Origin: a virus
Strand: one strand, 5' to 3'
Virus record (IMG/VR): IMGVR_UViG_3300020062_000003
Span: 1-35,829 of that record
DNA: 35,829 nucleotides
Made by a program: the position numbers and the translations under genes. Below the pieces are notes generated by a model, which was not told where the DNA came from, did no database searches, and worked only from the letters and a program-made list of their open reading frames with translations. Positions 1 through 35,829 of the stretch are shown piece by piece; the first letter of the stretch is position 1, and the number at the start of each line of letters is the position of its first letter.

Positions 1-127
1 GGATATTGCAGTAGTACTAAATTGTTTCGAGGAGTTAGCTAAAACAATTTACTTTTTCTTCTTAGATACTTTTCTAGCTTCACTTAAAGCAATAGCAATA
101 GCTTGTTTAGGATTTTTAACTACCGGA
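1..127. repeat. Terminal overlap identical to 35703-35829 (circular closure or direct terminal repeat)
   Basis: Read directly: ggatattgcagtagtactaaattg...gatttttaactaccgga is present at both window ends, 127/127 identical. Confidence 0.95.
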
Positions 128-1038: not shown

Positions 1039-3075
1039 CTACTCTGAAGAGGCTTGAGGAGAATTTATTTCTTCTTCTTTGATAGCTTCTTGTTGTTTAA
1101 TCATCTGCTGTATAGATATTATCTGTTGTAAGTGGCTAATGTCTATATTTTCTATTTCTTTCATCGCTTTCACAAAATTCAATAATGCCATATTATCATC
1201 TGCAACTGCTTTGGCACGACGTTCAACGCCAAGTGCCTTATTCTCATCAATACGACTAAATCTTTCTGCACCAAGACCTTGGTTAGCCATTGCATGAGCT
1301 TGAGCCAACTGAGTGCGGGCTTCTTGTTCTTGCATAGTAGATTGGATTTGCATTTGCTGTATTTGTTGAGCTTCTTTCTGTTGTTGTTCCATCTTTTGAA
1401 TAATCTCGTCTTTATTCTGTATCGTTGCTGCATCAATAAGGCTTGAATCAGGAATAGGAACACCTATCTCTTTGAGTTGCATAAGTTGAGCAAACTGCAT
1501 CTGTTTTTGAGATTCAGTATTGAATCCCATCTCTACCATACAATGATATTTACCAAATGATTTGTTATAAAATAATGGCGCAGGTTCATCACCCTCAAGT
1601 AAATTCTTAATCTTACCAGGCGTATAGTTATGTTGTATAACCTTCATTACTAATTCACCAAGTAAATTTTGTGAGAAATCAAGTCTATCAAATAGAGGCT
1701 GTAAAGTTGTAAGACCTGCCCCTTGGCGGAGTGCAGATAATATCCCTGCTTTATCATCAAGCGCTGAACCCATAAGTTCTTCATTGATACCAGAGACTAA
1801 GTTCATCTCTTTAGAAAATGTATCCTGTAACTGGAAAAAGTATTGTGGAATATCAGGTGGAGATATCTGTTGGATATCAGTCATTTGCGCTTCTTCCTTT
1901 AATGGAATTATGCGTCCCTGACCTGTTTGAAAGAGATGTTTAACGTCAACGACTGCGTTTTCTTTAAATATCCAACCGCTATTTACTACCGATTCAGCGG
2001 CATCTGCTGACAGTATTATACGACGATTAAATAGAATCTGTGGATCCCTGAGCGATCGGCATATACCCTGTATACGGCTATAAAAATAAGGCATCATTGG
2101 ATTATAATAGCCAAGCACTGGTACAAATGGATATACATCTATATTCAAGCTATTAGGACCATCGTAAAATACTTTATCCTGAATCATGATCGCCATACGA
2201 ACAGTTGGAATATCCTGTTCTATTACAGTAACTTGAGGGTAATGCTCAAGGAAAGTCTTCACATCAAGATCAGATTGATTAGTAATCTCAAACGTCTCAC
2301 CGGTCATTTTATCAACGAGTAATTTTTGTTTTCTATAATCACGATAATAGTATTCATCATACGCAAGTCTATTTTGCTGAGTTTGTCCGAAGCTTTCAGG
2401 CATATATTGGAATCTGCCATCTCTACCTGTTCCTGTTGGATTGCCAGGCAAAGACATAATCTCTTCATATCTGTCAGGCATCAATGCTGCTGCTGCACTA
2501 TGAGATAAATAAGATCTCCTCCAAACAAAAGAACAATCGGATAGATCTGGTTTTCTAAAGTAGGGATCAATAAAGAAACTATTGTATGAACAGTTATCTA
2601 CTTTAAGGTCACCTGAAACAGGATCATTACGATAATCCATATATACGTGAAGCAAATTCATACCAGCAATACATCCACCTTGATGGAATGCCTCAGATAT
2701 GGTTTCATAAACGCCTTCACGCTTATATATATTAAGAAGAACTTTAGTTAATTGATCTGAAGTCTGCTGATCTCCATTTTCTAATGGGACAACAATAGTA
2801 GATTTTCTATTACGACGTTGATAACCAGATACCATGTTACATAAAGGCCTAACACGGTTAAAATAGAAAGACCCTCTATTATTATTGGGCATCGTGGTAT
2901 TAAGTTCTGCCATTAGCGAAGTATCACCCGCTTCAAGACGAGTATCTATTGTAGCCTCAGTCCAATATACCTGCCATATTGCCTGATTGGCGGTATAGTC
3001 AGCATCTATTTTCTTTTTGATGGCGCTATAACCACCACTCATAGAATCTAACGAGTCAGTTTGCCTCATCAACAT
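1039..3075 (-). CDS. Portal protein (678 aa) with a long C-terminal Q-rich helical region
   Basis: Size and position next to the large terminase fit a portal. The helical Q/E-rich C-terminus resembles a podovirus portal barrel. Start moved to MLMRQ (ATG 3075), which follows AGGAGGG + 6 nt. The track start at 3102 has no SD. Confidence 0.75.
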   Translation of the reverse strand: MLMRQTDSLDSMSGGYSAIKKKIDADYTANQAIWQVYWTEATIDTRLEAGDTSLMAELNTTMPNNNRGSFYFNRVRPLCNMVSGYQRRNRKSTIVVPLENGDQQTSDQLTKVLLNIYKREGVYETISEAFHQGGCIAGMNLLHVYMDYRNDPVSGDLKVDNCSYNSFFIDPYFRKPDLSDCSFVWRRSYLSHSAAAALMPDRYEEIMSLPGNPTGTGRDGRFQYMPESFGQTQQNRLAYDEYYYRDYRKQKLLVDKMTGETFEITNQSDLDVKTFLEHYPQVTVIEQDIPTVRMAIMIQDKVFYDGPNSLNIDVYPFVPVLGYYNPMMPYFYSRIQGICRSLRDPQILFNRRIILSADAAESVVNSGWIFKENAVVDVKHLFQTGQGRIIPLKEEAQMTDIQQISPPDIPQYFFQLQDTFSKEMNLVSGINEELMGSALDDKAGILSALRQGAGLTTLQPLFDRLDFSQNLLGELVMKVIQHNYTPGKIKNLLEGDEPAPLFYNKSFGKYHCMVEMGFNTESQKQMQFAQLMQLKEIGVPIPDSSLIDAATIQNKDEIIQKMEQQQKEAQQIQQMQIQSTMQEQEARTQLAQAHAMANQGLGAERFSRIDENKALGVERRAKAVADDNMALLNFVKAMKEIENIDISHLQQIISIQQMIKQQEAIKEEEINSPQASSE

Positions 3076-3159
3076 TTTATACCCTCCTAAAACTCCTTCC
3101 ATAAGAGTCTAGAAAGAAGTCTATAACGTTTTAACATCAATAACCAATATTTACGTCTA

Positions 3160-3525
3160 TTATTTATTCAGAAAATAGAAATCCATAATTTCTTTGAAAC
3201 TAGAATAATTAAAACTATCGTCATCAGCATTAAATTCTATTTCACATTCATGATTTCTTCTGTTCATTCGTAAAGAGAACATACAATCACTATTGTATGC
3301 CACAAATTCTGTTTTATCGTCATGATATTTTAACTCCTCAAACGTATAAACCGTATACTTAGCTGCCCATGAAGCGCAAATGAGAGCTATTTGGAGCATA
3401 GTATTATTTTTATGAGGACACATCGGTACATTTTTATATATATGTACCACACGTAAATCAGATGTGTTTGCGCATAATAGGCTACTAGTTGCAAAAAGGA
3501 AGAGAAAAATCAATTTGTTTTTCAC
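3160..3525 (-). CDS. Secreted Cys-containing protein (121 aa) with an N-terminal signal peptide, between terminase and portal
   Basis: N-terminus KNKLIFLFLFATSSLLCANTS has n-, h- and c-regions. The start is GTG (3525-3523), overlapping the TerL TAG stop by 1 nt. No family recognised. Confidence 0.55.
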   Translation of the reverse strand: MKNKLIFLFLFATSSLLCANTSDLRVVHIYKNVPMCPHKNNTMLQIALICASWAAKYTVYTFEELKYHDDKTEFVAYNSDCMFSLRMNRRNHECEIEFNADDDSFNYSSFKEIMDFYFLNK

Positions 3526-4895
3526 TATTTATACCTGTCATAACGGGAGTCATCTCTAAAAAAGCGAGGTAGGTCTCCCTGGTTCCCATACAACGCTTGT
3601 GCTTTCTTCCTATCAAAGTCTTCTGGAGACATGCCTCGCTTGGCTTTATGAATAGCCACACATAAATATCGTAAACAATCAGCAAAATGTGAAGCCCATG
3701 ATTTAACTGGCTTAGGTAGATACATTTGCTTTGCTTCATCCCATTCTTTGCGATAGTTCTCAAGAGCATCAATAAGCGAACGACACTTTTCAGCGTCAAT
3801 CCAAAACTTATTAAAGTGAGTCCATACATTTTCTATACCATCAATAATACCTATCTGATCAACAAGAGAAAAATTAATGCCGAGCTGGCGTGCCTTTTCA
3901 TAGCGAGTTACCGCTCCCCCCCCCCATTCACGTACTTTAATATCATGGGGAGCAAAATGCTTACTATACGCATAAGGCTTTTCCTGTAATATCTTTACAT
4001 AATGATCAAGACCAAGATTATTATTAGAATAACAATCGATAATACGAATAACACTTCCATCTCCTACAACATTGAAAAATATTATAGTAGTAGCATCATT
4101 AACACCAATATCCCAAGCTGTATAAACAAGCAAACCTGGCTCCCATGGAACATGACCTATCTGTCCTCTCAGTTTTAGCGCATCAAGATGCGTACCATAA
4201 AAACTTCCTGATATACCACGATCAAAACTACACTCATATTCCTGAAGGTAAAGCCCTTCATCCATTTGCGATCGTTCTTGAGATAATACTTCAGTTGGAA
4301 TGTGTCCTATTTCAGATGCCTTATGAACAAATATAGTCCATTCAGGTAACTCTTGCGATATCTTGTAGAGAGAAAAGAGATGATTCTTACCACGAGGTGT
4401 CCCGACAATTGCACACCATCCTCCATTTGCTGCAAGAATAGGTCGTATGAACGAGAAAATGTCTGGTGGCATTAAACTATACTCTGAAAGTATTACCGCG
4501 TAAGGATTAGTTCCTACCAACGAGCTATCGTATGTGTCACCACCAATGATCTGCAATATCGATCCGTTTTTAAATCGTATTTTCATCTCGGACTGATTGA
4601 CACTTTCAACAAGCATACTGGGAAGGTAATCAAGGAACTTAGTTCCATCAATGGCAATGGCATCGAATATAGCTTTACGACCTTGTCCATAGGTTGGCAA
4701 TACATAAAACACTAAGCAGACCCTTTTGATACATTGACGAATGGCAAGATTCCAAAAAAGGATATCCTTACCTGCTCGGCGGCTTGCAATATAGAGTATT
4801 CGCTTAGATTTTTGTTGTTCTATAGTGTCCCATATCTCTTCTTGATACCAACGTAAGGAAAATTTATCTAAAGCTACTTGTACTTCAACGCTCAT
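3525..4895 (-). CDS. terL: Terminase large subunit (456 aa)
   Basis: Walker-A-like ASRRAGKD, IVGTPRGKNHLF, and nuclease-half motifs AWDIGVNDATTIIFF and HFAPHD. Start taken at MSVEVQ (ATG 4895), which overlaps the upstream TAA as TAATG. Confidence 0.9.
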   Translation of the reverse strand: MSVEVQVALDKFSLRWYQEEIWDTIEQQKSKRILYIASRRAGKDILFWNLAIRQCIKRVCLVFYVLPTYGQGRKAIFDAIAIDGTKFLDYLPSMLVESVNQSEMKIRFKNGSILQIIGGDTYDSSLVGTNPYAVILSEYSLMPPDIFSFIRPILAANGGWCAIVGTPRGKNHLFSLYKISQELPEWTIFVHKASEIGHIPTEVLSQERSQMDEGLYLQEYECSFDRGISGSFYGTHLDALKLRGQIGHVPWEPGLLVYTAWDIGVNDATTIIFFNVVGDGSVIRIIDCYSNNNLGLDHYVKILQEKPYAYSKHFAPHDIKVREWGGGAVTRYEKARQLGINFSLVDQIGIIDGIENVWTHFNKFWIDAEKCRSLIDALENYRKEWDEAKQMYLPKPVKSWASHFADCLRYLCVAIHKAKRGMSPEDFDRKKAQALYGNQGDLPRFFRDDSRYDRYK

Positions 4896-5137
4896 TAAAG
4901 TTTCCACAATAAATTTTTTCCACAAAACATACAATGAAAAAGCTCTAAACAAACCCCAGGTATAGGATGAACCACATAATAAGTTTTACATTTATCATCG
5001 TAGCTAAATGTATCAGGACGAACTTCCAATGCTTTCTCCATAGTCAAACAGCAATGAGGCCCTTTGTAATCCTGTGTTGTTTGTTCAATTCTTCTATCTA
5101 TCGCTTCATACCATTCTTTATATTCTTCATCATTCAT
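4895..5137 (-). CDS. Small Cys/His-rich protein (80 aa), possibly zinc-binding
   Basis: ORF track. HCC..C..C..HCMFC pattern. ATGA overlap with the upstream gene and TAATG overlap with terL. Confidence 0.5.
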   Translation of the reverse strand: MNDEEYKEWYEAIDRRIEQTTQDYKGPHCCLTMEKALEVRPDTFSYDDKCKTYYVVHPIPGVCLELFHCMFCGKNLLWKL

Positions 5138-7914: not shown

Positions 7915-8535
7915 CTATTCTCTATTCTTTGCTATATACGATTTAACTGCCGCATAAGACGCAAATGGCAGATCAGCAAAAGACCGTATATTATAATCTT
8001 TAAGTATAGTGGCATAGAGTAATTTCCCATTAGCACATGCTTTTAGTTGTGTATGTAAATACTCAATTTCTTCTTTAACTAGTAAATCTGATTCTGGTTT
8101 ATTCTTTGCAATATACTTCTCTTCACCCTCACCATCATCATCTTCAGTAGCAATGGCACAAAGTGATAAGAGTGCATATTTCTTCATGTATGTATTAGCA
8201 GCACCTTTACCTTGATTACCTGGTTTCTCACTTTCAAGAACACGGCAATCTTCTATAAACTGTCCTGTTGTTGCATGAATCAAACGAGTATGGAGATATT
8301 CTATTCCATCTTCAGGTCGAGCAAAGTGCCATATGATAATATTATTCTTAGACAAAGCACCTTCAACTGCATGATAGATGTCTGCTATCTTTGCGTAGTT
8401 ATACTTCTGATGTGCATTAACTCCACCCAATCCTGTAGCTCTAAACTCATTCTTAGCTAATAAAAATGCTGATGCTAAAGCTCTTATATCTTCCGACATT
8501 GCTGGATTATAATTCTTCGTTGATACGTTTTCCAT
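7915..8535 (-). CDS. erf: ERF-family single-strand annealing protein (206 aa)
   Basis: KYNYAKIADIYHAVEGALSKNNI, H.TTGQ, GAANTYMKKYALLSLCAIATEDDDGEGE match the ERF core (Y.YA..., G.A.TY.rRY.l..l.gI..eDDD). Confidence 0.8.
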   Translation of the reverse strand: MENVSTKNYNPAMSEDIRALASAFLLAKNEFRATGLGGVNAHQKYNYAKIADIYHAVEGALSKNNIIIWHFARPEDGIEYLHTRLIHATTGQFIEDCRVLESEKPGNQGKGAANTYMKKYALLSLCAIATEDDDGEGEEKYIAKNKPESDLLVKEEIEYLHTQLKACANGKLLYATILKDYNIRSFADLPFASYAAVKSYIAKNRE

Positions 8536-8888: not shown

Positions 8889-8903
8889 GTGACATTTTGT
8901 CAC
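8889..8903. promoter_or_regulatory. 15-bp perfect palindrome GTGACA-ttt-TGTCAC (candidate operator)
   Basis: Read directly. It lies between the rightward promoter and the first rightward ORF. Confidence 0.4.
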
Positions 8904-8917
8904 GACTTGAGACAGGT

Positions 8918-9190
8918 ATGCAAAAAGAAATGACAATAAAAGAAATAGCAGCTCTTCTTCAAAAAAGAATCGATACCCGTATGGAATCTTTTATGGAATT
9001 ACATGATAAATTAAAGGCTATAACTATTGAAATTGAGAAATTAGAAAAGAAGATGGCTACAATAGTTATAGAACTGGAACCAGTTCAATCTTTAATCTAT
9101 AATCAAAACCCACAGTTAGAAAAAATATTTGAATCACTCAAACGTATTTATAAAGGAGAAGAGAATGGTATTGATAGAGAAGTTAACTAA
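8918..9190 (+). CDS. Coiled-coil protein (90 aa)
   Basis: ORF track 8897-9190 (TTG start). I prefer ATG 8918 (MQKEMTIKE). Heptad-rich sequence, no family recognised. Confidence 0.45.
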   Translation: MQKEMTIKEIAALLQKRIDTRMESFMELHDKLKAITIEIEKLEKKMATIVIELEPVQSLIYNQNPQLEKIFESLKRIYKGEENGIDREVN

Positions 9191-9482
9191 CGAATTAGAT
9201 GTTGAAATTACTCGTGTATGGCAAGAATATATAGATCTTCATGCTGAACTTGATAGTCATCGTGGCAAACCAATAGATGATACTAATTTAGATGAAATTA
9301 ATAGAATTCTAAAGGATATTCAGGAGAAGTTTGGTTTGCTATATCCAGCGTATCATTTCATAGCAACACGGCATCAATATGTTTCAAATGCTGTGACTGC
9401 TTATAATGAATTTATTGAAACTATTAAAAAATCTGGCGCTAAGCAAGATGAATCTGGTCCTTCAAAAATAATCACAGGTTAA
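9165..9482 (+). CDS. Hypothetical protein (105 aa)
   Basis: ORF track 9129-9482. Start moved to MVLIEKL (ATG 9165), which follows AAAGGAG. Confidence 0.45.
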   Translation: MVLIEKLTNELDVEITRVWQEYIDLHAELDSHRGKPIDDTNLDEINRILKDIQEKFGLLYPAYHFIATRHQYVSNAVTAYNEFIETIKKSGAKQDESGPSKIITG

Positions 9483-9483
9483 T

Positions 9484-10161
9484 ATGGAACAGAATAATAT
9501 TTACCGTTCAACTGACATTAATGAAATCATGGGTGCTTTGAGTAAAGCTCAGGGAAATTATAAACAACTCAAAGCAAACCAGGATGCCCCAGGAGGAAAG
9601 TTTGCTAACCTTCAAGCAATATTGGATGCCGTGAGAGAATCGTTGGCTAAAAATGGTTTAGGGTTCTTTCAGTTCATTGAATTATTAGATGAAGGTTCGG
9701 GTGCTGCACTCCTAAAAACAACTATAGGTCATGAGTCAGGTCAGTATATATCTTCATGTGCCCGGGTGGTCACTGGTAAAACTGAGCGTCAGACGGGTAA
9801 CATCTATGAGATTCATAAGCGCTTGCATGCTTTGATGTTGTTGGGTATTGCACCATCAGACAACGATCCTATTGCGTTTGATGACAATGGTGAAATAATA
9901 GCAGAACAACATCTCGTGGCTAGCTTAAGAAAGCCAGACTCTCCTAAGAAAGAAGAGATTGATCGCACTGATGTTATTAATAAGCATCAATATGATGAAC
10001 TACTTATTGAGCTTGAGGGGTTTGAGAAAATAGCTAAAGATATTATGGAAGTCTATGACATTCATACATTGGCAGATCTTCCTTCGTCTGAGTATCATAG
10101 AGCACGGGCTAAGATATTGAAAATCAAAAGGACACAAGAAGATTATTTAAGAAAAAAATAA
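9484..10161 (+). CDS. Second, diverged ERF-like protein (225 aa)
   Basis: Aligns by eye with the 206-aa ERF along its full length: GKFANLQAILDAVRESLAKNGL vs KYNYAKIADIYHAVEGALSKNNI; GHESGQYI vs ATTGQFI; ALMLLGIAPSDND vs ALLSLCAIATEDDD; C-terminal YDIHTLADLPSSEY vs YNIRSFADLPFASY. Confidence 0.6.
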   Translation: MEQNNIYRSTDINEIMGALSKAQGNYKQLKANQDAPGGKFANLQAILDAVRESLAKNGLGFFQFIELLDEGSGAALLKTTIGHESGQYISSCARVVTGKTERQTGNIYEIHKRLHALMLLGIAPSDNDPIAFDDNGEIIAEQHLVASLRKPDSPKKEEIDRTDVINKHQYDELLIELEGFEKIAKDIMEVYDIHTLADLPSSEYHRARAKILKIKRTQEDYLRKK

Positions 10162-10397
10162 TGAAACTAGAAAATATGCTTGTTAGATTCAGTAAGCCTT
10201 GCAAATATGATCAATCATCGTATGGAACAGTTTGTAAAACAATAAAAACGATGAGTGATACGTTTGAAATTTACATTCAAATGAGTAAAGATGAATGTTA
10301 TCCTTGCTGGGAAAAAGTGGGAATATTTTCTGAAAAAACAGAACATTTAATATCTGAAGAAGTGAATAGAATATTAAATATAAAACAAGTTTCTTAG
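10161..10397 (+). CDS. Hypothetical protein (78 aa)
   Basis: ORF track. TAATG overlap with the preceding stop. Last gene before the rightward terminator. Confidence 0.45.
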   Translation: MKLENMLVRFSKPCKYDQSSYGTVCKTIKTMSDTFEIYIQMSKDECYPCWEKVGIFSEKTEHLISEEVNRILNIKQVS

Positions 10398-10435
10398 AGC
10401 ACTGTACTTACGAGAAGGAAACTTCTTATAAGTGT

Positions 10436-10474
10436 CTCCCATGGTGAAGGTTAGTCTCCATGGGAGGCTTTTTG
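10436..10474 (+). terminator. Rho-independent terminator of the rightward block
   Basis: ctcccatgg (10436-10444) / ccatgggag (10458-10466), followed by gcttttt. Confidence 0.7.
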
Positions 10475-10505
10475 TGTAAATAGATATATTATACCATCTA
10501 GTCAA

Positions 10506-10548
10506 TTAAAAAACAGATCCCATAGTTAGTTTGGATAACTATAGGATC
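10506..10548 (-). terminator. Rho-independent terminator of the leftward structural block
   Basis: gatcccatagtt (10516-10527) / aactataggatc (10537-10548), 11/12 paired. On the minus strand it is followed by tgttttttaatt (A-run 10508-10513 on plus). Confidence 0.65.
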
Positions 10549-10571
10549 GATGAGCAGGAGGACTGAAAAGT

Positions 10572-10895
10572 TTAAACTTCTAACGTTTCTTCAAAAACTA
10601 ATGGCTCTTGAGGTAAATCTCTTGTAGCTCTATCTTGATAATTAGGTTGAGAGAAAACTAGTTTAGCATATTCATCAGGATCAGTTGGAATCATTTTAAC
10701 ACCATTTATTGCTAACTTTGAATCCCATTCATCTTTTAAACGCTTAAAGCATTGTTCATATTTATGCGTTAATACCCATTCAAGACGACGATTCATATCT
10801 TCATCAAATATATCTGCAGATACATCATTTTTAATAACTTGTTCTTGTGTATCTGAAAGAGTAAATATTTCTTTATCGTTTACTAATATTTTCAT
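10572..10895 (-). CDS. Hypothetical acidic protein (107 aa) downstream of the giant fibre; possible fibre assembly factor
   Basis: ORF track, AAGGA RBS. The functional suggestion rests on position only. Confidence 0.45.
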   Translation of the reverse strand: MKILVNDKEIFTLSDTQEQVIKNDVSADIFDEDMNRRLEWVLTHKYEQCFKRLKDEWDSKLAINGVKMIPTDPDEYAKLVFSQPNYQDRATRDLPQEPLVFEETLEV

Positions 10896-20927: not shown

Positions 20928-22592
20928 TCAGGCTGCACATGTTAAGTTGGTCCATGTAGTTCCTGCATCTGTGTTTATATAGGCACGTGAAGTTGCACCA
21001 GCTGGGTCAGATCTTAAATATAATGATCCTATAGGAGCTGTTATAGCACCACTAGGACTACCAGCACCAGCAAGAACAAGTAAACCACCAGGTAAACTTA
21101 ATCCACGACCAGCAACTGTTACACTCAATCCATTTGCGGCAGCTACATTTGTTCCTGTAGGAGTATTAAGTACTAAAGTAGAACCAGCTGTCGTTGAACC
21201 AACAGTTGTTGCATGGGCAGTTGCGCTTGTTCCCAAGTTCAATGATGAACCTGTACCAACATTTATATTTACTGCAGTTGCGCCAGTAATATTACCTATA
21301 GTAATTGTTCGAGCAGCAGCACCAGTACCAATGTTAATAGCTTGAGCAACCGCATTATTACCTACGTTAATCACACCAGCAGAAGAGTTAATTGATAATG
21401 CACCAGTAGCATTAAGAACTAAAGTTCCTGTAGAAGCTGCAGTAATATTTCCTGTACCTGAAAGAAGGCTTAATGATGCTGCTCCAGTAGCAGAACCAAT
21501 AGTAATCACGTTATCTATTGCACCAGTACCAATATTAACCGTCTTGATACCTGTTCCACCAGTAGCAACTTCAACTGTTTGAGCTCCTGTACCTGGAGCA
21601 ATTGCTACCGTTCCTGTTTGTAAACCAGTACCACCAATACTTACTGTGCCAGTTGTCATACCTGTACCAATTGCAACTGATCCACCCGTTTGGGTATTAC
21701 CGATTGCAATTACATTGGCTCCTGTTCCGCCGATAGAGATTGTATTTGCAACAGCAGCGCCAGTACCAATTAGTATTGTTTTACCAACCGCATCAGCACC
21801 AAGACTAATTGAACCTGTTCCAGTTGTAAGCAAGAAATTACCATTAGTTGCACCAAGAGAAAATCCTGCTGTTCCCGCAAGTAAAGTTACACCACCAGCA
21901 GCATCTCCAGCTATTATATTTACAGCACTAGCGCTAGCTAATCCACCTTGGATAGTTATACCACCAGCATTAGATAAAAGACTAAAAGAATCAATAGCAG
22001 TACCTTGAGAAACTATAAAATCAATAGTCTCTAAAGCGCCACCATTGGTAGTAAAGCTAATAGCAGGATCAGTATTTGAAGTAGTGGTGAAACTTATTGC
22101 AGCGGCAGAAGTTAAATCGAAATCACCATTGGCGATAATGTCTCCATTTACTGTCAAATCAGAAGTCAAAATTACCGCACCTGTAACATCTAATGTACCA
22201 CCAATTGTTGTATCACTAGTAACATCTAACGTACTTGATAAAGTTGTTGCTCCCGCTACTAATACACCTAATGTAGCAATACTACCTGGTGCCATATTAA
22301 GATCGCCAGCTGTTATATTAACATCGCCTGCTGTAACGGTTAAATCGCCAGGATTCACTGTAAACGAGGTAGCTGCTACTGCACCCGCAACCGCCGCTGT
22401 CCATATATTAAGACCACCAATTGCAGAAGTTAGAATAAAAAACGATTGGGAAGTAGTATTTACCCAGGTTGTACCGATTTCTGCTGTGTCAGAATCCAAA
22501 GGATCTCTATCAGAAACGATAGGTTCTTGCTGTAGGCTTGCATTCGTTCCCGGATAACCATACAGCGAAAAGCGCCTATTAACTTTAGTCAT
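20928..22592 (-). CDS. Tail fibre (554 aa) with an N-terminal anchor motif and a Gly/Thr/Ala-rich solenoid
   Basis: N-terminal SDRDPLDSDTAEIGTTWVNTTSQSFFILTS parallels NDRDPNDFDIQNVSIGDMWLNEANETVWVLVS in the giant fibre. C-terminus GSLYLRSDPAGATSRAYINTDAGTTWTNL. Start at the second ATG (22592), 6 nt after AAGGAG. Confidence 0.75.
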   Translation of the reverse strand: MTKVNRRFSLYGYPGTNASLQQEPIVSDRDPLDSDTAEIGTTWVNTTSQSFFILTSAIGGLNIWTAAVAGAVAATSFTVNPGDLTVTAGDVNITAGDLNMAPGSIATLGVLVAGATTLSSTLDVTSDTTIGGTLDVTGAVILTSDLTVNGDIIANGDFDLTSAAAISFTTTSNTDPAISFTTNGGALETIDFIVSQGTAIDSFSLLSNAGGITIQGGLASASAVNIIAGDAAGGVTLLAGTAGFSLGATNGNFLLTTGTGSISLGADAVGKTILIGTGAAVANTISIGGTGANVIAIGNTQTGGSVAIGTGMTTGTVSIGGTGLQTGTVAIAPGTGAQTVEVATGGTGIKTVNIGTGAIDNVITIGSATGAASLSLLSGTGNITAASTGTLVLNATGALSINSSAGVINVGNNAVAQAINIGTGAAARTITIGNITGATAVNINVGTGSSLNLGTSATAHATTVGSTTAGSTLVLNTPTGTNVAAANGLSVTVAGRGLSLPGGLLVLAGAGSPSGAITAPIGSLYLRSDPAGATSRAYINTDAGTTWTNLTCAA

Positions 22593-22634
22593 AATCATCT
22601 CCTTAATAATTTAAAATAATCTTTCTATCATTTA

Positions 22635-22714: not shown

Positions 22715-22888
22715 ATGACAGAAATAAAGAAGCGTAAACAAATGGCTTTTGATATAAACCCAGAAGTTCACAAGAAAGTTAAAGTATTAGCTGCTCTTAG
22801 AAATATCTCAATAAATCTATGGATGTCTAGAGCTATAAATGATCGAATAGAAAAAGAAACTAAATATGATGATAAACTTAAGGAATGA
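22715..22888 (+). CDS. Ribbon-helix-helix (CopG/Arc/ParG-like) DNA-binding protein (57 aa), not in the ORF track
   Basis: My translation: MTEIKKRKQMAFDINPEVHKKVKVLAALRNISINLWMSRAINDRIEKETKYDDKLKE. It shows beta-strand (MAFDI), helix (PEVHKKVKVLAA), turn and helix (SINLWMSRAINDRI). GAAAGG RBS. Confidence 0.6.
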   Translation: MTEIKKRKQMAFDINPEVHKKVKVLAALRNISINLWMSRAINDRIEKETKYDDKLKE

Positions 22889-22889
22889 T

Positions 22890-23066
22890 ATGACAACAAT
22901 TGTTAATTTTTGTTATAGAGGAATATTAAAAGGGATAGAAATATTTATAAAAATGCATATTGCTATAGCATTAATAACTATCACTATTCCCTTATTAATA
23001 TGTTTATGTTATCTTGCAATAAACTTTATTGCTACTTTATCAAGTTTACTACCAATCTTATCTTGA
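22890..23066 (+). CDS. Small hydrophobic membrane peptide (58 aa)
   Basis: ORF track 22866-23066. I prefer ATG 22890, 4 nt after AAGGAA and 1 nt after the RHH stop. MTTIVNFCYRGILKGIEIFIKMHIAIALITITIPLLICLCYLAINFIATLSSLLPILS. The last 58 nt overlap the 3' end of the convergent 393-aa gene. Confidence 0.4.
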   Translation: MTTIVNFCYRGILKGIEIFIKMHIAIALITITIPLLICLCYLAINFIATLSSLLPILS

Positions 23067-34128: not shown

Positions 34129-34149
34129 ACTACTCCTCAGAATGTATCT

Positions 34150-34229
34150 GTTGCGCTCTATACAAACGCAACAAAAATACACAAATGCTTCTACTTTTCA
34201 TTAAAATTAATTGTTGCGTTATAGCGCAA
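34150..34229. promoter_or_regulatory. Two GC-rich palindromic motifs (TTGCG...CGCAA) in the AT-rich region upstream of the structural operon
   Basis: gttgcg (34150-34155) N11 cgcaac (34167-34172). TTGCGTTATAGCGCAA at 34214-34229, a 16-mer that is a 7/8 palindrome. Confidence 0.3.
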
Positions 34230-34429
34230 TAATAGTAAATAAAGCCGATAATATCAAAATAAGTATTTTAAAGTGCTTTTTATTCTTTATTATTTGGATA
34301 ATATATGTTATTATTTTAGCAACTAAATACACAGTGTGAATTTTAAACAGGAGATTTCAATGTTCTAATAACCACGGTTCTCTTATCATGTTTTCATTAA
34401 ATAAAAATATTCATAAAAGCAGGATTCTC

Positions 34430-35083
34430 ATGAAAAAACTTTTACTCTTATCATTATTAAGTTCATCTCTATTCTCAATGCAACTTAGTACCGTTGAAAA
34501 CAACCAAAAAATAGCTAAAATATACGTCAAGAATAACCAAATCATAGATAAGATAGATATTGGTTCATCAATTGAACTTGATAAAGTTAGTTATGCTGAT
34601 AATAAAAACAAAATGTACATTGAACCATTATCAGTTCGTGTGCCTAAGCGATTAGGGAATCTAGACCTTTATCATAGCAAGAAAGGCTTCTATGTTCGCG
34701 AAGATGATAAAAAACATACTATAAAAAAGTATTATACCGATCCAGTAGTTCGCAACATGACAAAAACTGAACTCAAGTCTTTTCTTACTGCAGGATATCT
34801 TTCCATTAACCAGATGAATGATGGTGAATATTCACTTAAAGCTAATGGACGCTTAGTTGGTGGTGGAGCCCTTGGAGCAAGCATTGGAGCTTTTCTTGGC
34901 AAAGCCGCTGTTTACGTAGTAGGTCATGGAGCTATTCAGATAGTTGCGATATTAACTGGACCAGCTTATCCAGTCACGGTTCTTGCTTTGGAAGGATGTT
35001 TTGCTGTACCTATTGAAGCTGCGAGCATGGCCGGAGCAATCGCAGGAGGAATAGCGCTTGGTGTAGCAACAGGGCCTGTATGA
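34430..35083 (+). CDS. Exported protein (217 aa): signal peptide, soluble middle domain, C-terminal glycine-zipper membrane region
   Basis: MKKLLLLSLLSSSLFSMQ signal peptide. C-terminus GGGALGASIGAFLGKAAVYVVGHGAIQIVAILTG...AASMAGAIAGGIALGVATGPV. Start moved from 34388 to ATG 34430, which follows AGGA. Confidence 0.6.
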   Translation: MKKLLLLSLLSSSLFSMQLSTVENNQKIAKIYVKNNQIIDKIDIGSSIELDKVSYADNKNKMYIEPLSVRVPKRLGNLDLYHSKKGFYVREDDKKHTIKKYYTDPVVRNMTKTELKSFLTAGYLSINQMNDGEYSLKANGRLVGGGALGASIGAFLGKAAVYVVGHGAIQIVAILTGPAYPVTVLALEGCFAVPIEAASMAGAIAGGIALGVATGPV

Positions 35084-35206
35084 TCCCTTGGTATACACAA
35101 GTATTCTATGCAATTATAGTCTTTTTATTGATTCATATTTTCAAGTTTTATTTTTTGGGAAATGAAGATATTTTTCTCACACTCATCAAATACTTCAGGA
35201 AAAAAG

Positions 35207-35350
35207 ATGACTCAAAATGAACACACTATCACAGCAGGGATAATCATATTTATTGGGTGGCAATTAGTTTGGCATCTAGCTTTAAAACATCATCCTGTTA
35301 CTAAAAAAAACATAACAGAATGGTTAGAGATTTTTAACGAATATTTTTAA
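35207..35350 (+). CDS. Small single-TM protein (47 aa)
   Basis: ORF track 35162-35350. The internal start MTQNEH follows AGGAAAAAAG. TM segment ITAGIIIFIGWQLVWHLAL. Confidence 0.4.
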   Translation: MTQNEHTITAGIIIFIGWQLVWHLALKHHPVTKKNITEWLEIFNEYF

Positions 35351-35369
35351 AAACAAATGAGGAATTTCC

Positions 35370-35666
35370 ATGAAAAAACTCTTATATCTATTATTAATAT
35401 CAGCACCTATTTTTTCAATGCAACAACCAATAAATAAAAATCAAACACTAATGAATGATAAGAAATTACCACTCGATACTAAAAAGGTTGTTACTACAAC
35501 ACTCACTACAGGTAAACCTCTGAGTGCTTTAGATTTTGGTATAGTAGCAGTAGGATCTATTTTATGTCCTTTTCCAACGGCAGCATTCTACATAGGGACA
35601 GCTACAGTTATAGCAACTAAAGTAATTATTAATAATACTTTAGATAACAATAACAATAAGAAATAA
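35370..35666 (+). CDS. Exported or membrane protein (98 aa) with a signal peptide paralogous to that of the 217-aa protein
   Basis: MKKLLYLLLISAPIFSMQ matches MKKLLLLSLLSSSLFSMQ at 12/18 positions. C-terminal hydrophobic segment FGIVAVGSILCPFPTAAFYIGTATVIATKVII. GAGGAA RBS. Confidence 0.55.
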   Translation: MKKLLYLLLISAPIFSMQQPINKNQTLMNDKKLPLDTKKVVTTTLTTGKPLSALDFGIVAVGSILCPFPTAAFYIGTATVIATKVIINNTLDNNNNKK

Positions 35667-35680
35667 ACTATATATAAAAC

Positions 35681-35709
35681 AATATCCCCCTGGATCGAAG
35701 GGGGATATT
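35681..35709 (-). terminator. 10-bp GC-cored hairpin at the convergence point, spanning the circular junction
   Basis: aatatccccc (35681-35690), loop tggatcgaa, gggggatatt (35700-35709). On the minus strand it is followed by gttttatatat, so it probably terminates the leftward block that ends with the 83-aa gene, and possibly the rightward island too. Confidence 0.55.
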
Positions 35710-35829
35710 GCAGTAGTACTAAATTGTTTCGAGGAGTTAGCTAAAACAATTTACTTTTTCTTCTTAGATACTTTTCTAGCTTCACTTAAAGCAATAGCAA
35801 TAGCTTGTTTAGGATTTTTAACTACCGGA
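35703..35829. repeat. Terminal overlap identical to 1-127
   Basis: See the first feature. Confidence 0.95.

Follow-up and report, generated by a model that had tools for sequence, protein, structure and literature searches.

A cargo slot of podophages linked to Babeliales carries a candidate polymorphic membrane toxin with putative cognate immunity proteins

The viral genome analysed here (IMG/VR virus record IMGVR_UViG_3300020062_000003, 35,829 nucleotides (nt), hereafter the window) carries a rightward gene island at 34430-35666. On balance, we interpret this island as a phage-borne moron that encodes a polymorphic membrane toxin together with cognate immunity proteins, the toxicity being deduced from gene organisation. 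The island comprises four closely spaced open reading frames (ORFs) on the plus strand, the first three of which overlap. ORF1 (34430-35083, 217 amino acids (aa)) has a signal peptide, a soluble N-domain and a glycine-zipper hairpin and is the candidate toxin; ORF2a (35080-35220, 46 aa) and ORF2b (35207-35350, 47 aa, MTQNEH...) are single-pass transmembrane (TM) peptides and candidate immunity subunits, and ORF3 (35370-35666, 98 aa) is an optional last gene of the two cassette types, A and B, described below. An initial annotation of this DNA had listed ORF1, ORF2b and ORF3 as an island of three proteins; these are present with the coordinates and sizes given there, and ORF2a had been missed.

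ORF1 begins with MKKLLLLSLLSSSLFSMQ and consists of a Sec signal peptide (residues 1-16), a variable linker, a soluble N-domain (approximately residues 60-143), a G-G-G motif (144-146) and a C-terminal module, termed A (147-217). Residues 135-146 read ...SLKANGRLVGGG, and the tail is hydrophobic and rich in Gly and Ala. A word-indexed search recovered 70 homologues, and a profile search covering 1.84 billion representatives found 1080 clusters (at 50% identity) at E<=1e-3, of which 656 also passed E<=1e-10. Throughout this family the order is leader, variable linker, soluble domain of ~85 aa (consensus LYHSKKGFYV...GYLSxNQMxDGEYSLKAxGR), an invariant G-G-G junction, and then either module A or an unrelated module B. 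The junction consensus ...R-x-x-G-G-G precedes both modules. Module A (~70 aa) follows the pattern GALGASIGAFLGK..GHGAIQ..TGPAYP..ALE..IEAAS..GGIALGVATGPV, while module B is rich in Gly, Ala and Thr, spans 120-150 aa in the surveyed loci and ends in IAGVEALSVAVGTFFGMLPTP; long-B variants, such as P0231, have modules of up to ~270 aa. Polymorphic toxins are distinguished by this arrangement, in which unrelated C-terminal modules alternate behind a conserved N-terminal part and a conserved junction.

N-domains and modules have evidently been shuffled between loci, since their degrees of identity are incongruent. The N-domain of the window is 78% and 74% identical to those of two B-type loci (L006 and L018, respectively) and 58% and 47% identical to those of two A-type loci (L004 and L040), although module A is 86% identical. 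In L006, the N-domain of 78% identity is followed by a module with 43% identity to that of the window. Moreover, the downstream genes covary with the module and not with the N-domain. Genes resembling ORF2a and ORF2b follow nine module-A genes (those of the window, L004, L013, L023, L025, L040, L001, L007 and a PT-HINT fusion in L008/L009), and in seven module-B loci a two-TM protein of 65-70 aa is encoded directly downstream. Cross pairs of an A or B module with the partner of the other type were not seen in the surveyed loci. At the level of gene order, this is the neighbourhood typical of cognate immunity genes. Concordantly, none of the examined loci had an intact module gene lacking a small TM gene behind it, either directly or after a tandem paralogue (the first B copy in L011; a 167-aa gene in L041). 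The reverse, partner genes standing without an intact module gene, occurred repeatedly, and an imbalance of this kind is expected of a toxin/immunity pair.

Module A also forms the C-terminus, that is the toxin position, of two pretoxin-HINT proteins, P0069 and P0070. Their PT-HINT domains scored 27.7 bits (P0069) and 31.4 bits (P0070, E 2.5e-7) at a cut-off of 27.7, and module A was matched with E 3.5e-9 in P0069 and only 1.2e-3 in P0070. The Hint domain of both proteins begins with Gly in place of Cys and ends in ...VHN|G which, on our own reading and given Hint chemistry, suggests C-terminal cleavage only. Downstream of the fusion gene, peptides resembling ORF2a and ORF2b are again encoded, coupled through ATGA, and no phage homologues were detected at this locus.

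Orphan module stubs and arrays of candidate immunity genes, a further hallmark of polymorphic toxin loci, are found in L050, L048/L051 and L001. L048/L051 represent a chromosomal site between thioredoxin and ribonucleotide-reductase genes, where a remnant of the 173-aa gene bordering the island in the phages has been kept and ORF2a/2b lie without a module-A gene between two terminator copies. The gene order in L050, which lies beside Ku and LigD, is a long-B gene of 310 aa, a 53-aa TM ORF, a partner-B gene, ORF2a/2b fused to a module-A 3' stub of 16 codons, then three further paralogues of partner B (n=4 in all) and a module-B stub. L001 (9554-12840) and L011 (7662-11450) contain cassette arrays from two strains at one Babeliales chromosomal locus, situated between a lactonase-like gene and ssrA/smpB (the transfer-messenger RNA (tmRNA) was confirmed by Rfam), with the phage control region and a 34-50-aa remainder of the 173-aa phage gene in front of them. 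L001 retains an intact module A with intact ORF2a/2b, while its two B copies are broken and it has no partner B. In L011 it is the A gene that is broken, alongside intact ORF2a/2b, and both B copies as well as partner B have stayed intact. Both are long-read assemblies, so that these frameshifts need confirmation. Beyond the array, a C-terminal lactonase-like fragment was noticed, and a search for an attP-like match between the phage and the tmRNA gene beside the chromosomal remnant yielded none.

In the phages, the island occupies a fixed slot between the 173-aa gene, which served as anchor, and the DUF6496 gene, and we surveyed this slot in related contigs. An A module with ORF2a, ORF2b and ORF3 is present in the window, L023 and L040, and the same set without ORF3 in L004, L025 and L013; L022 has a diverged A with a different 53-aa TM ORF. 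B with its 65-70-aa two-TM partner fills the slot in L006 and L018, B with partner and an ORF3-type gene in L010/L024, and an N-domain fragment followed by B and partner in L027 and L041. The slot is empty in L029 and L030, where the 173-aa gene runs straight to the terminator and the DUF6496 gene, and in L021, whose portal is 92% identical to that of the window, it holds a 77-aa secreted protein without TM segment, alone. Judged by its gene context, the island is an optional, mobile cargo, i.e. a moron, because it has its own promoter, its own terminator, an orientation opposite to its surroundings and a variable occupancy. Decayed phage fragments in Babeliales chromosomes retain only the island and a stub of the neighbouring phage gene.

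The control elements of the slot are shared by the different cargoes. An alignment of 10 loci with A- or B-type cassettes revealed a sigma-70-like promoter at 34286-34314 (plus strand), with a -35 element TTTATT (34286-34291; TTTACC is the consensus in relatives), a 17-nt spacer ending in TGT and a -10 element TATTAT (34309-34314). It was not listed by a generic promoter scan; the region is retained in the bacterial remnants L001 and L011, and it presumably acts as a host-type promoter of the island. A leader element follows at 34349-34375 (plus strand), with a Shine-Dalgarno (SD) sequence AGGAG (34349-34353), a mini-ORF ATG-TTC-TAA (34360-34368) and the unit TAACCAC. This succession of SD, a mini-ORF of 1-3 sense codons and TAACCAC upstream of ORF1 is conserved in phage and bacterial loci, with mini-ORF variants ATG-TTT-TAA, 3-codon forms and a bare ATG-TAA behind the SD in L007. 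L001, L025 and L022 have repeats of TAACCAC, and in L001 alone the mini-ORF is repeated as well. The mini-ORF may be a translational control element. Further upstream, where structural operon and island diverge, direct and inverted TGTTGCG / CGCAACA repeats (34149-34229) have the appearance of operators; they are also preserved in relatives and in the chromosomal remnants. This upstream control region is conserved whichever cargo occupies the slot. A 42-aa hydrophobic ORF at 34211-34339 was rejected as a gene as it is not conserved in relatives; the DNA conservation of this stretch is explained by the putative promoter and operator located there. A hairpin terminator with a 13-bp stem (35679-35711) lies between the island and the convergent terminase-portal-DUF6496 operon and is common to both. 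It is kept in relatives and bacterial remnants, and the two copies flanking the orphan ORF2a/2b pair in L048 are of this type.

ORF2a, whose TM segment is strongly hydrophobic, is without a call in public annotations on every contig examined. Its ATG overlaps the ORF1 stop codon (ATGA), an arrangement of translational coupling. The protein is conserved in at least 9 distinct loci, and the ratio of nonsynonymous to synonymous polymorphism (pN/pS) is 0.24 in its frame vs ~1.1 in the other two frames, from which we conclude that ORF2a is a real gene under purifying selection. ORF2b is preceded by AGGA 6 nt upstream of its start. ORF2a and ORF2b overlap by 14 nt in the window and by ATGA in relatives; an A-run that is shorter by one A in the window has extended ORF2a by these 14 nt. 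Both peptides have charged C-termini and a holin-like size, and by the positive-inside rule both are predicted to be oriented N-out/C-in. ORF3 combines an ORF1-type leader with a short polar linker, a hydrophobic hairpin with a Pro turn (SILCPFPT) and an Asn/Lys-rich tail, and evolves fast. As it accompanies A and B cassettes alike, it is no type-specific partner, and we regard it as an accessory hairpin protein that is predicted to be exported. A position-by-position recount upheld the earlier finding that the leaders of ORF1 and ORF3 are identical at 12/18 positions. The match is not due to chance, since family alignments gave MKKxLxLL..SxFSM[QE] as a family-wide leader consensus. A canonical signal-peptidase site, [LMIV]-x-[SGA] followed by M, terminates the leaders; those of ORF1 and ORF3 have the cut sites L-F-S|M or I-F-S|M and contain neither Cys nor a lipobox. 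Searches of the island proteins and their B-type counterparts against Pfam, PHROGs, NCBIfam and PADLOC gave nothing above noise and no muralytic domain, as had been anticipated. Within the ORF1 family, no ORF1-specific Pfam domain was found, the sole Pfam matches being the Hint domains of P0069 and P0070.

An AlphaFold2 model of ORF1, built from a 13-sequence alignment, reached a mean predicted local distance difference test score (pLDDT) of 64.6. It shows a small, beta-rich N-domain with one helix (pLDDT 76-81) and module A as a helical hairpin with helices 145-174 and 177-214 (pLDDT 74-80). The C-terminal glycine-zipper region noted initially could be confirmed: GxxxG-type registers lie at 145-157 and 197-215, at both ends of the hairpin. 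The only charged or ionisable residues of the hairpin, K158, H166, E188 and E196, are all conserved, and its hydrophobicity is marginal (Kyte-Doolittle 1.65-1.74). Foldseek comparison of the model with PDB and BFVD produced no match at E<=0.001 (best E 0.3); the hairpin weakly resembles ATP-synthase c-subunits (template modelling score 0.46, E 2.4), which we take as no more than a hint. Searching PDB sequences with profiles of the whole family or of the N-domain alone found nothing. The possibility that the N-domain is a degenerate Hint domain was rejected (hhalign probability 0.2%).

The occurrence of the family links these phages to their hosts. Many ORF1 homologues are located on 32-38 kb contigs syntenic with the window, others on bacterial chromosomes. 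One carrier chromosome (1.2 Mb) encodes a Rho that falls into one cluster, at >=90% identity, with the Rho proteins of 'Candidatus Babeliales bacterium' metagenome-assembled genomes, and on another carrier, a 395-kb contig, the homologue lies among ftsZ, ftsA, alanine racemase and truB. Since ORF1 homologues reside on chromosomes, one of them with a Babeliales-type Rho, the host is almost certainly a member of Babeliales (Dependentiae). The phage group consists of podophages of ~35 kb with a P22-type portal, tied to Babeliales hosts by shared DNA. Dependentiae (TM6) are widespread obligate intracellular bacteria of protists, and Babeliales, living inside protists, have a very large exported secretome. 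The cultured Dependentiae representative C. destructans has a complete mur pathway, exports by Sec and has signal peptides on 44% of its coding sequences (CDS), many of these being presumed effectors (PMC6561590).

From these observations we propose the following mechanism. The putative host-type promoter and the mini-ORF leader would drive the four ORFs up to the strong terminator. Sec would export ORF1, with leader cleavage predicted after Ser16, so that the soluble N-domain carries the ~70-aa two-helix glycine-zipper hairpin of module A behind the G-G-G junction. By analogy, the hairpin would oligomerise through its glycine zippers in a cytoplasmic membrane and dissipate the membrane potential; the suggestion of the initial annotation that glycine-zipper proteins perturb membranes pointed in the right direction, the effect being assumed here from that analogy. 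The single-pass ORF2a and ORF2b proteins would bind the hairpin in the membrane of the producer and keep it harmless, and in related elements the unrelated module B would act with its own two-TM partner. The carrier, be it a phage-infected cell, a lysogen or a remnant-bearing bacterium, could gain the killing of, or protection from, kin of a different type; it could also become addicted to the element.

Several points weigh against this interpretation. All functional assignments derive from gene-neighbourhood logic, and no sequence or fold similarity to known toxin or immunity families was found in Pfam, NCBIfam, PADLOC, PDB or BFVD. The PT-HINT link consists of two proteins only, near the Pfam threshold. 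Long-read assembly may have introduced the frameshifts of L001 and L011 as errors. Annotation at the level of Pfam and PHROGs recognised neither an integrase nor a repressor in the phage genome, so that a toxin/immunity pair would have no obvious benefit in a purely lytic cycle. A dedicated trafficking or secretion domain (type V, VI or VII secretion systems (T5/T6/T7SS), Rhs, LXG) was not found in ORF1 with Pfam and NCBIfam; with the Sec-type leader as its only delivery signal, the route of the toxin into another cell lacks an explanation. Sec-only polymorphic toxins exist, and therefore the missing domain lowers our confidence in a toxin without excluding it. Finally, an obligate, non-toxic hetero-oligomeric complex in the membrane would likewise explain why neighbouring genes covary.

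Such a complex could serve superinfection exclusion or envelope remodelling, with ORF1 anchored in the inner membrane and assembled with ORF2a/2b, its periplasmic domain blocking DNA entry or receptor access of other phages, and the A and B types reflecting an arms race. We consider this doubtful, even though the slot has moron features (own promoter and terminator, variable occupancy), all island products are predicted to be exported or membrane proteins, partner covariation is compatible with an obligate complex, and retention in prophage remnants would be expected of a defence gene. However, an exclusion complex leaves no place for module A behind pretoxin-HINT domains, for orphan 3' stubs of modules beside partner genes, for arrays of paralogous partners or for partner pairs retained without the large protein; PADLOC, moreover, gave no match. 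The initial annotation had offered envelope or superinfection morons as its second option: the moron part holds, but the evidence specifically favours a polymorphic toxin/immunity organisation, which had not been proposed.

It is improbable that the cassette is aimed at the protist host of the bacterium. Here the hairpin would insert in a protist membrane, like the bilobed hydrophobic domain of chlamydial Inc proteins, its protection or chaperoning in the producer would fall to the small TM proteins, and the phage would spread a host-manipulation factor. That the carriers are Babeliales, the signal-peptide-rich proteome of C. destructans with its many presumed effectors (PMC6561590) and the marginal hydrophobicity of the hairpin, which suits Sec passage and insertion elsewhere, speak for this idea. 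Nevertheless, no eukaryote-like domain was found, nothing points to export beyond the periplasm, and type-specific partners, orphan partner arrays and A/B polymorphism are expected of inter-bacterial conflict instead. There is a similarly small chance that the island is a phage-spread effector in a phage/Babeliales/protist interaction or, equally, that hairpin and partners form a timing device of endolysin-independent lysis in some phages. As an effector, the hairpin would be released from the bacterium, for example through vesicles or upon lysis, and would enter a membrane of the eukaryotic host cell, vacuole or mitochondrion, and the small TM proteins would only protect the producer.

The initial annotation had regarded the island as the most plausible site of an unusual lysis function. 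On such a reading, the ORF1 hairpin, ORF2a/2b or all of them would serve as holin and antiholin, or would breach the envelope in some other way when infection ends. The premise of that annotation that holin, endolysin and spanin candidates are lacking elsewhere holds at the level of Pfam and PHROGs: searches for an endolysin or holin with PHROGs on 33 ORFs and Pfam on 35 ORFs at E<=0.01 found nothing, nor did a permissive search with Pfam at E<=1 on 10 large or unknown ORFs and a PDB sequence search of three virion proteins. Besides this lack in a closed genome, the holin-like size and charged C-termini of ORF2a and ORF2b speak for lysis, as does the fact that the island contains the only clear membrane-protein genes, apart from a marginal stretch in a 556-aa ORF (20928-22598) and two uncalled short hydrophobic ORFs (22866-23066 and 34211-34339); holins are likewise mosaic among related phages. 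Conservation in related phages, which had been named as a check, spoke against lysis: the island is missing in three syntenic relatives, L029, L030 and the close L021, whereas a holin would be conserved across the group and linked to an endolysin, and no muralytic gene adjoins the island. A spanin pair is not indicated either, as the ORF1 and ORF3 leaders have no lipobox Cys and no coiled-coil domain, such as an inner-membrane subunit would have in the periplasm, was predicted. The slot is exchanged between two unrelated types and lies outside the late operons behind a predicted host-type promoter, this module with its partners is also found downstream of PT-HINT, at a locus where no phage homologues were detected, and chromosomes keep exactly this part of a decayed phage and expand it into arrays, contrary to what lysis genes would lead one to expect. 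Since the island is optional, exchanged, retained by bacteria and found outside phages, missing lysis genes elsewhere do not imply a lysis role for it, which we judge very improbable, and the lysis genes would have to lie, as yet unrecognised, in the conserved backbone.

The favoured toxin/immunity interpretation can be compared with several known systems. Polymorphic toxins in the framework of Zhang, Aravind et al. 2012 (PF07591 PT-HINT) share with the island a conserved N-terminal part with variable C-terminal modules and a conserved junction, a covarying immunity-like gene downstream, orphan stubs and immunity arrays, and module A behind PT-HINT. They differ in that the island proteins are very small (~170-290 aa), possess a Sec leader only and no T5/T6/T7SS, Rhs or LXG domain, belong with the N-domain and both modules to no described family, and occupy a fixed phage slot; toxicity, furthermore, is presumed here. 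Glycine-zipper proteins that depolarise membranes are among the nearest analogues studied by experiment and share a C-terminal glycine-zipper helical segment, presumed to be the active part. TelE of S. gallolyticus (PMC10434224) and CdzC/CdzD of Caulobacter with the immunity protein CdzI (PMC5380434) are antibacterial toxins of this kind, and in S. aureus the membrane pair ExiC and ExiD protects against extracellular EsxX toxin and also occurs as an orphan in non-producers (PMC12744356). Two small membrane protectors with orphan occurrence parallel ORF2a/2b as candidate immunity proteins. Unlike these toxins, which use T7SS or a type I secretion system (T1SS), the island relies on Sec, is phage-borne and is found in a host phylum of Gram-negative type with an intracellular lifestyle; Pfam and NCBIfam revealed no similarity, and we claim no homology. 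Ionophore toxins of contact-dependent growth inhibition (CDI) insert helical domains into membranes, have polymorphic cognate CdiI immunity proteins and undergo modular exchange (PMC11630599), and the island resembles them in its putative polymorphic cognate pairs, its modular exchange and the predicted membrane insertion of a helical domain. However, the CDI domains are predicted five-helix bundles delivered via CdiA/CdiB with receptor-specific entry domains (PMC11630599), whereas the island has a two-helix hairpin and no delivery machinery.

Holins, antiholins and pinholins of phages are small single-pass membrane proteins with charged C-termini and overlapping frames, all of which applies to the phage-encoded ORF2a and ORF2b. 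In contrast to such genes, the island is not conserved across the phage group and has no adjoining endolysin, and its modules occur in non-phage chromosomal loci and behind PT-HINT and are retained in decayed remnants. The superinfection-exclusion morons P22 SieA, T4 Imm and HK97 gp15 are single proteins. They share with the island the autonomous promoter-gene-terminator unit in opposite orientation, the variable slot, the membrane location and a likely expression by host RNA polymerase, but their C-termini are not polymorphic in a modular way, and they have neither cognate partner genes nor orphan arrays. The toxin/immunity kind as such is already known; the candidate described here is built from undescribed domains.

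A literature search found no description of Dependentiae phages or of their inter-bacterial conflict systems. The locus connects a podophage family of ~35 kb with Babeliales hosts via shared DNA, defines a large unannotated protein family of ~1080 clusters at 50% identity, and displays, on a miniature scale and in a form that a phage mobilises, the full genetic layout of a polymorphic toxin/immunity system. If our interpretation is true, a minimal two-helix glycine-zipper toxin of ~70 aa with a two-peptide membrane immunity would offer a tractable model for in-membrane neutralisation, and even reduced intracellular bacteria would wage kin conflict via phage cargo.

The remainder of the genome is that of a podophage with nearly all genes on the minus strand. 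The first and last 127 nt of the window (1-127 and 35703-35829) are identical, which identifies a closed genome, either a circularly closed assembly or a terminally redundant molecule, with a unit of 35,702 bp. The window has no DNA match to any deposited phage, and the best protein link to known phages is a virion protein with 23-26% identity to Pseudomonas podophages; Rfam and tRNA scans of the window found nothing. The minus-strand terminase-portal-DUF6496 operon includes the P22-type portal gene (1039-3102) and the large terminase gene (3525-4952). Other recognisable genes encode a small-terminase-like protein, RusA, a replication/helix-turn-helix protein, two Erf paralogues, a Phage_capsid_4-type capsid protein and tail fibre and spike proteins, one of them with a Peptidase_S74 chaperone. 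The Erf-family single-strand annealing paralogues are divergent (7915-8535, minus strand; 9484-10161, plus strand). A 121-aa Cys-rich protein with an N-terminal signal-like segment (3160-3525, minus strand) is encoded between large terminase and portal and is kept in relatives (44% identity in L021).

The island had been described as the only other plus-strand island; the plus strand, however, additionally carries genes at 8897-10397 and a HicB-like ORF at 22715-22888. The latter, a 57-aa ribbon-helix-helix ORF matching HicB with 27.1 bits (cut-off 21), is located in a gap of the minus-strand structural operon and overlaps a very hydrophobic 66-aa ORF (22866-23066, plus strand). Here a further small moron, or a regulator of antitoxin type, may be present. 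In the relative L006, an HNH_3 homing-endonuclease-like gene (3418-4131) that is not present in the window is inserted in the structural operon. In the distant relative L017, whose portal is 43% identical, a shorter family member of 154 aa and a 109-aa multi-TM ORF (9929-10731) are found at a different genome position, after a 741-aa tail protein and beside a 450-aa uncharacterised minus-strand ORF.

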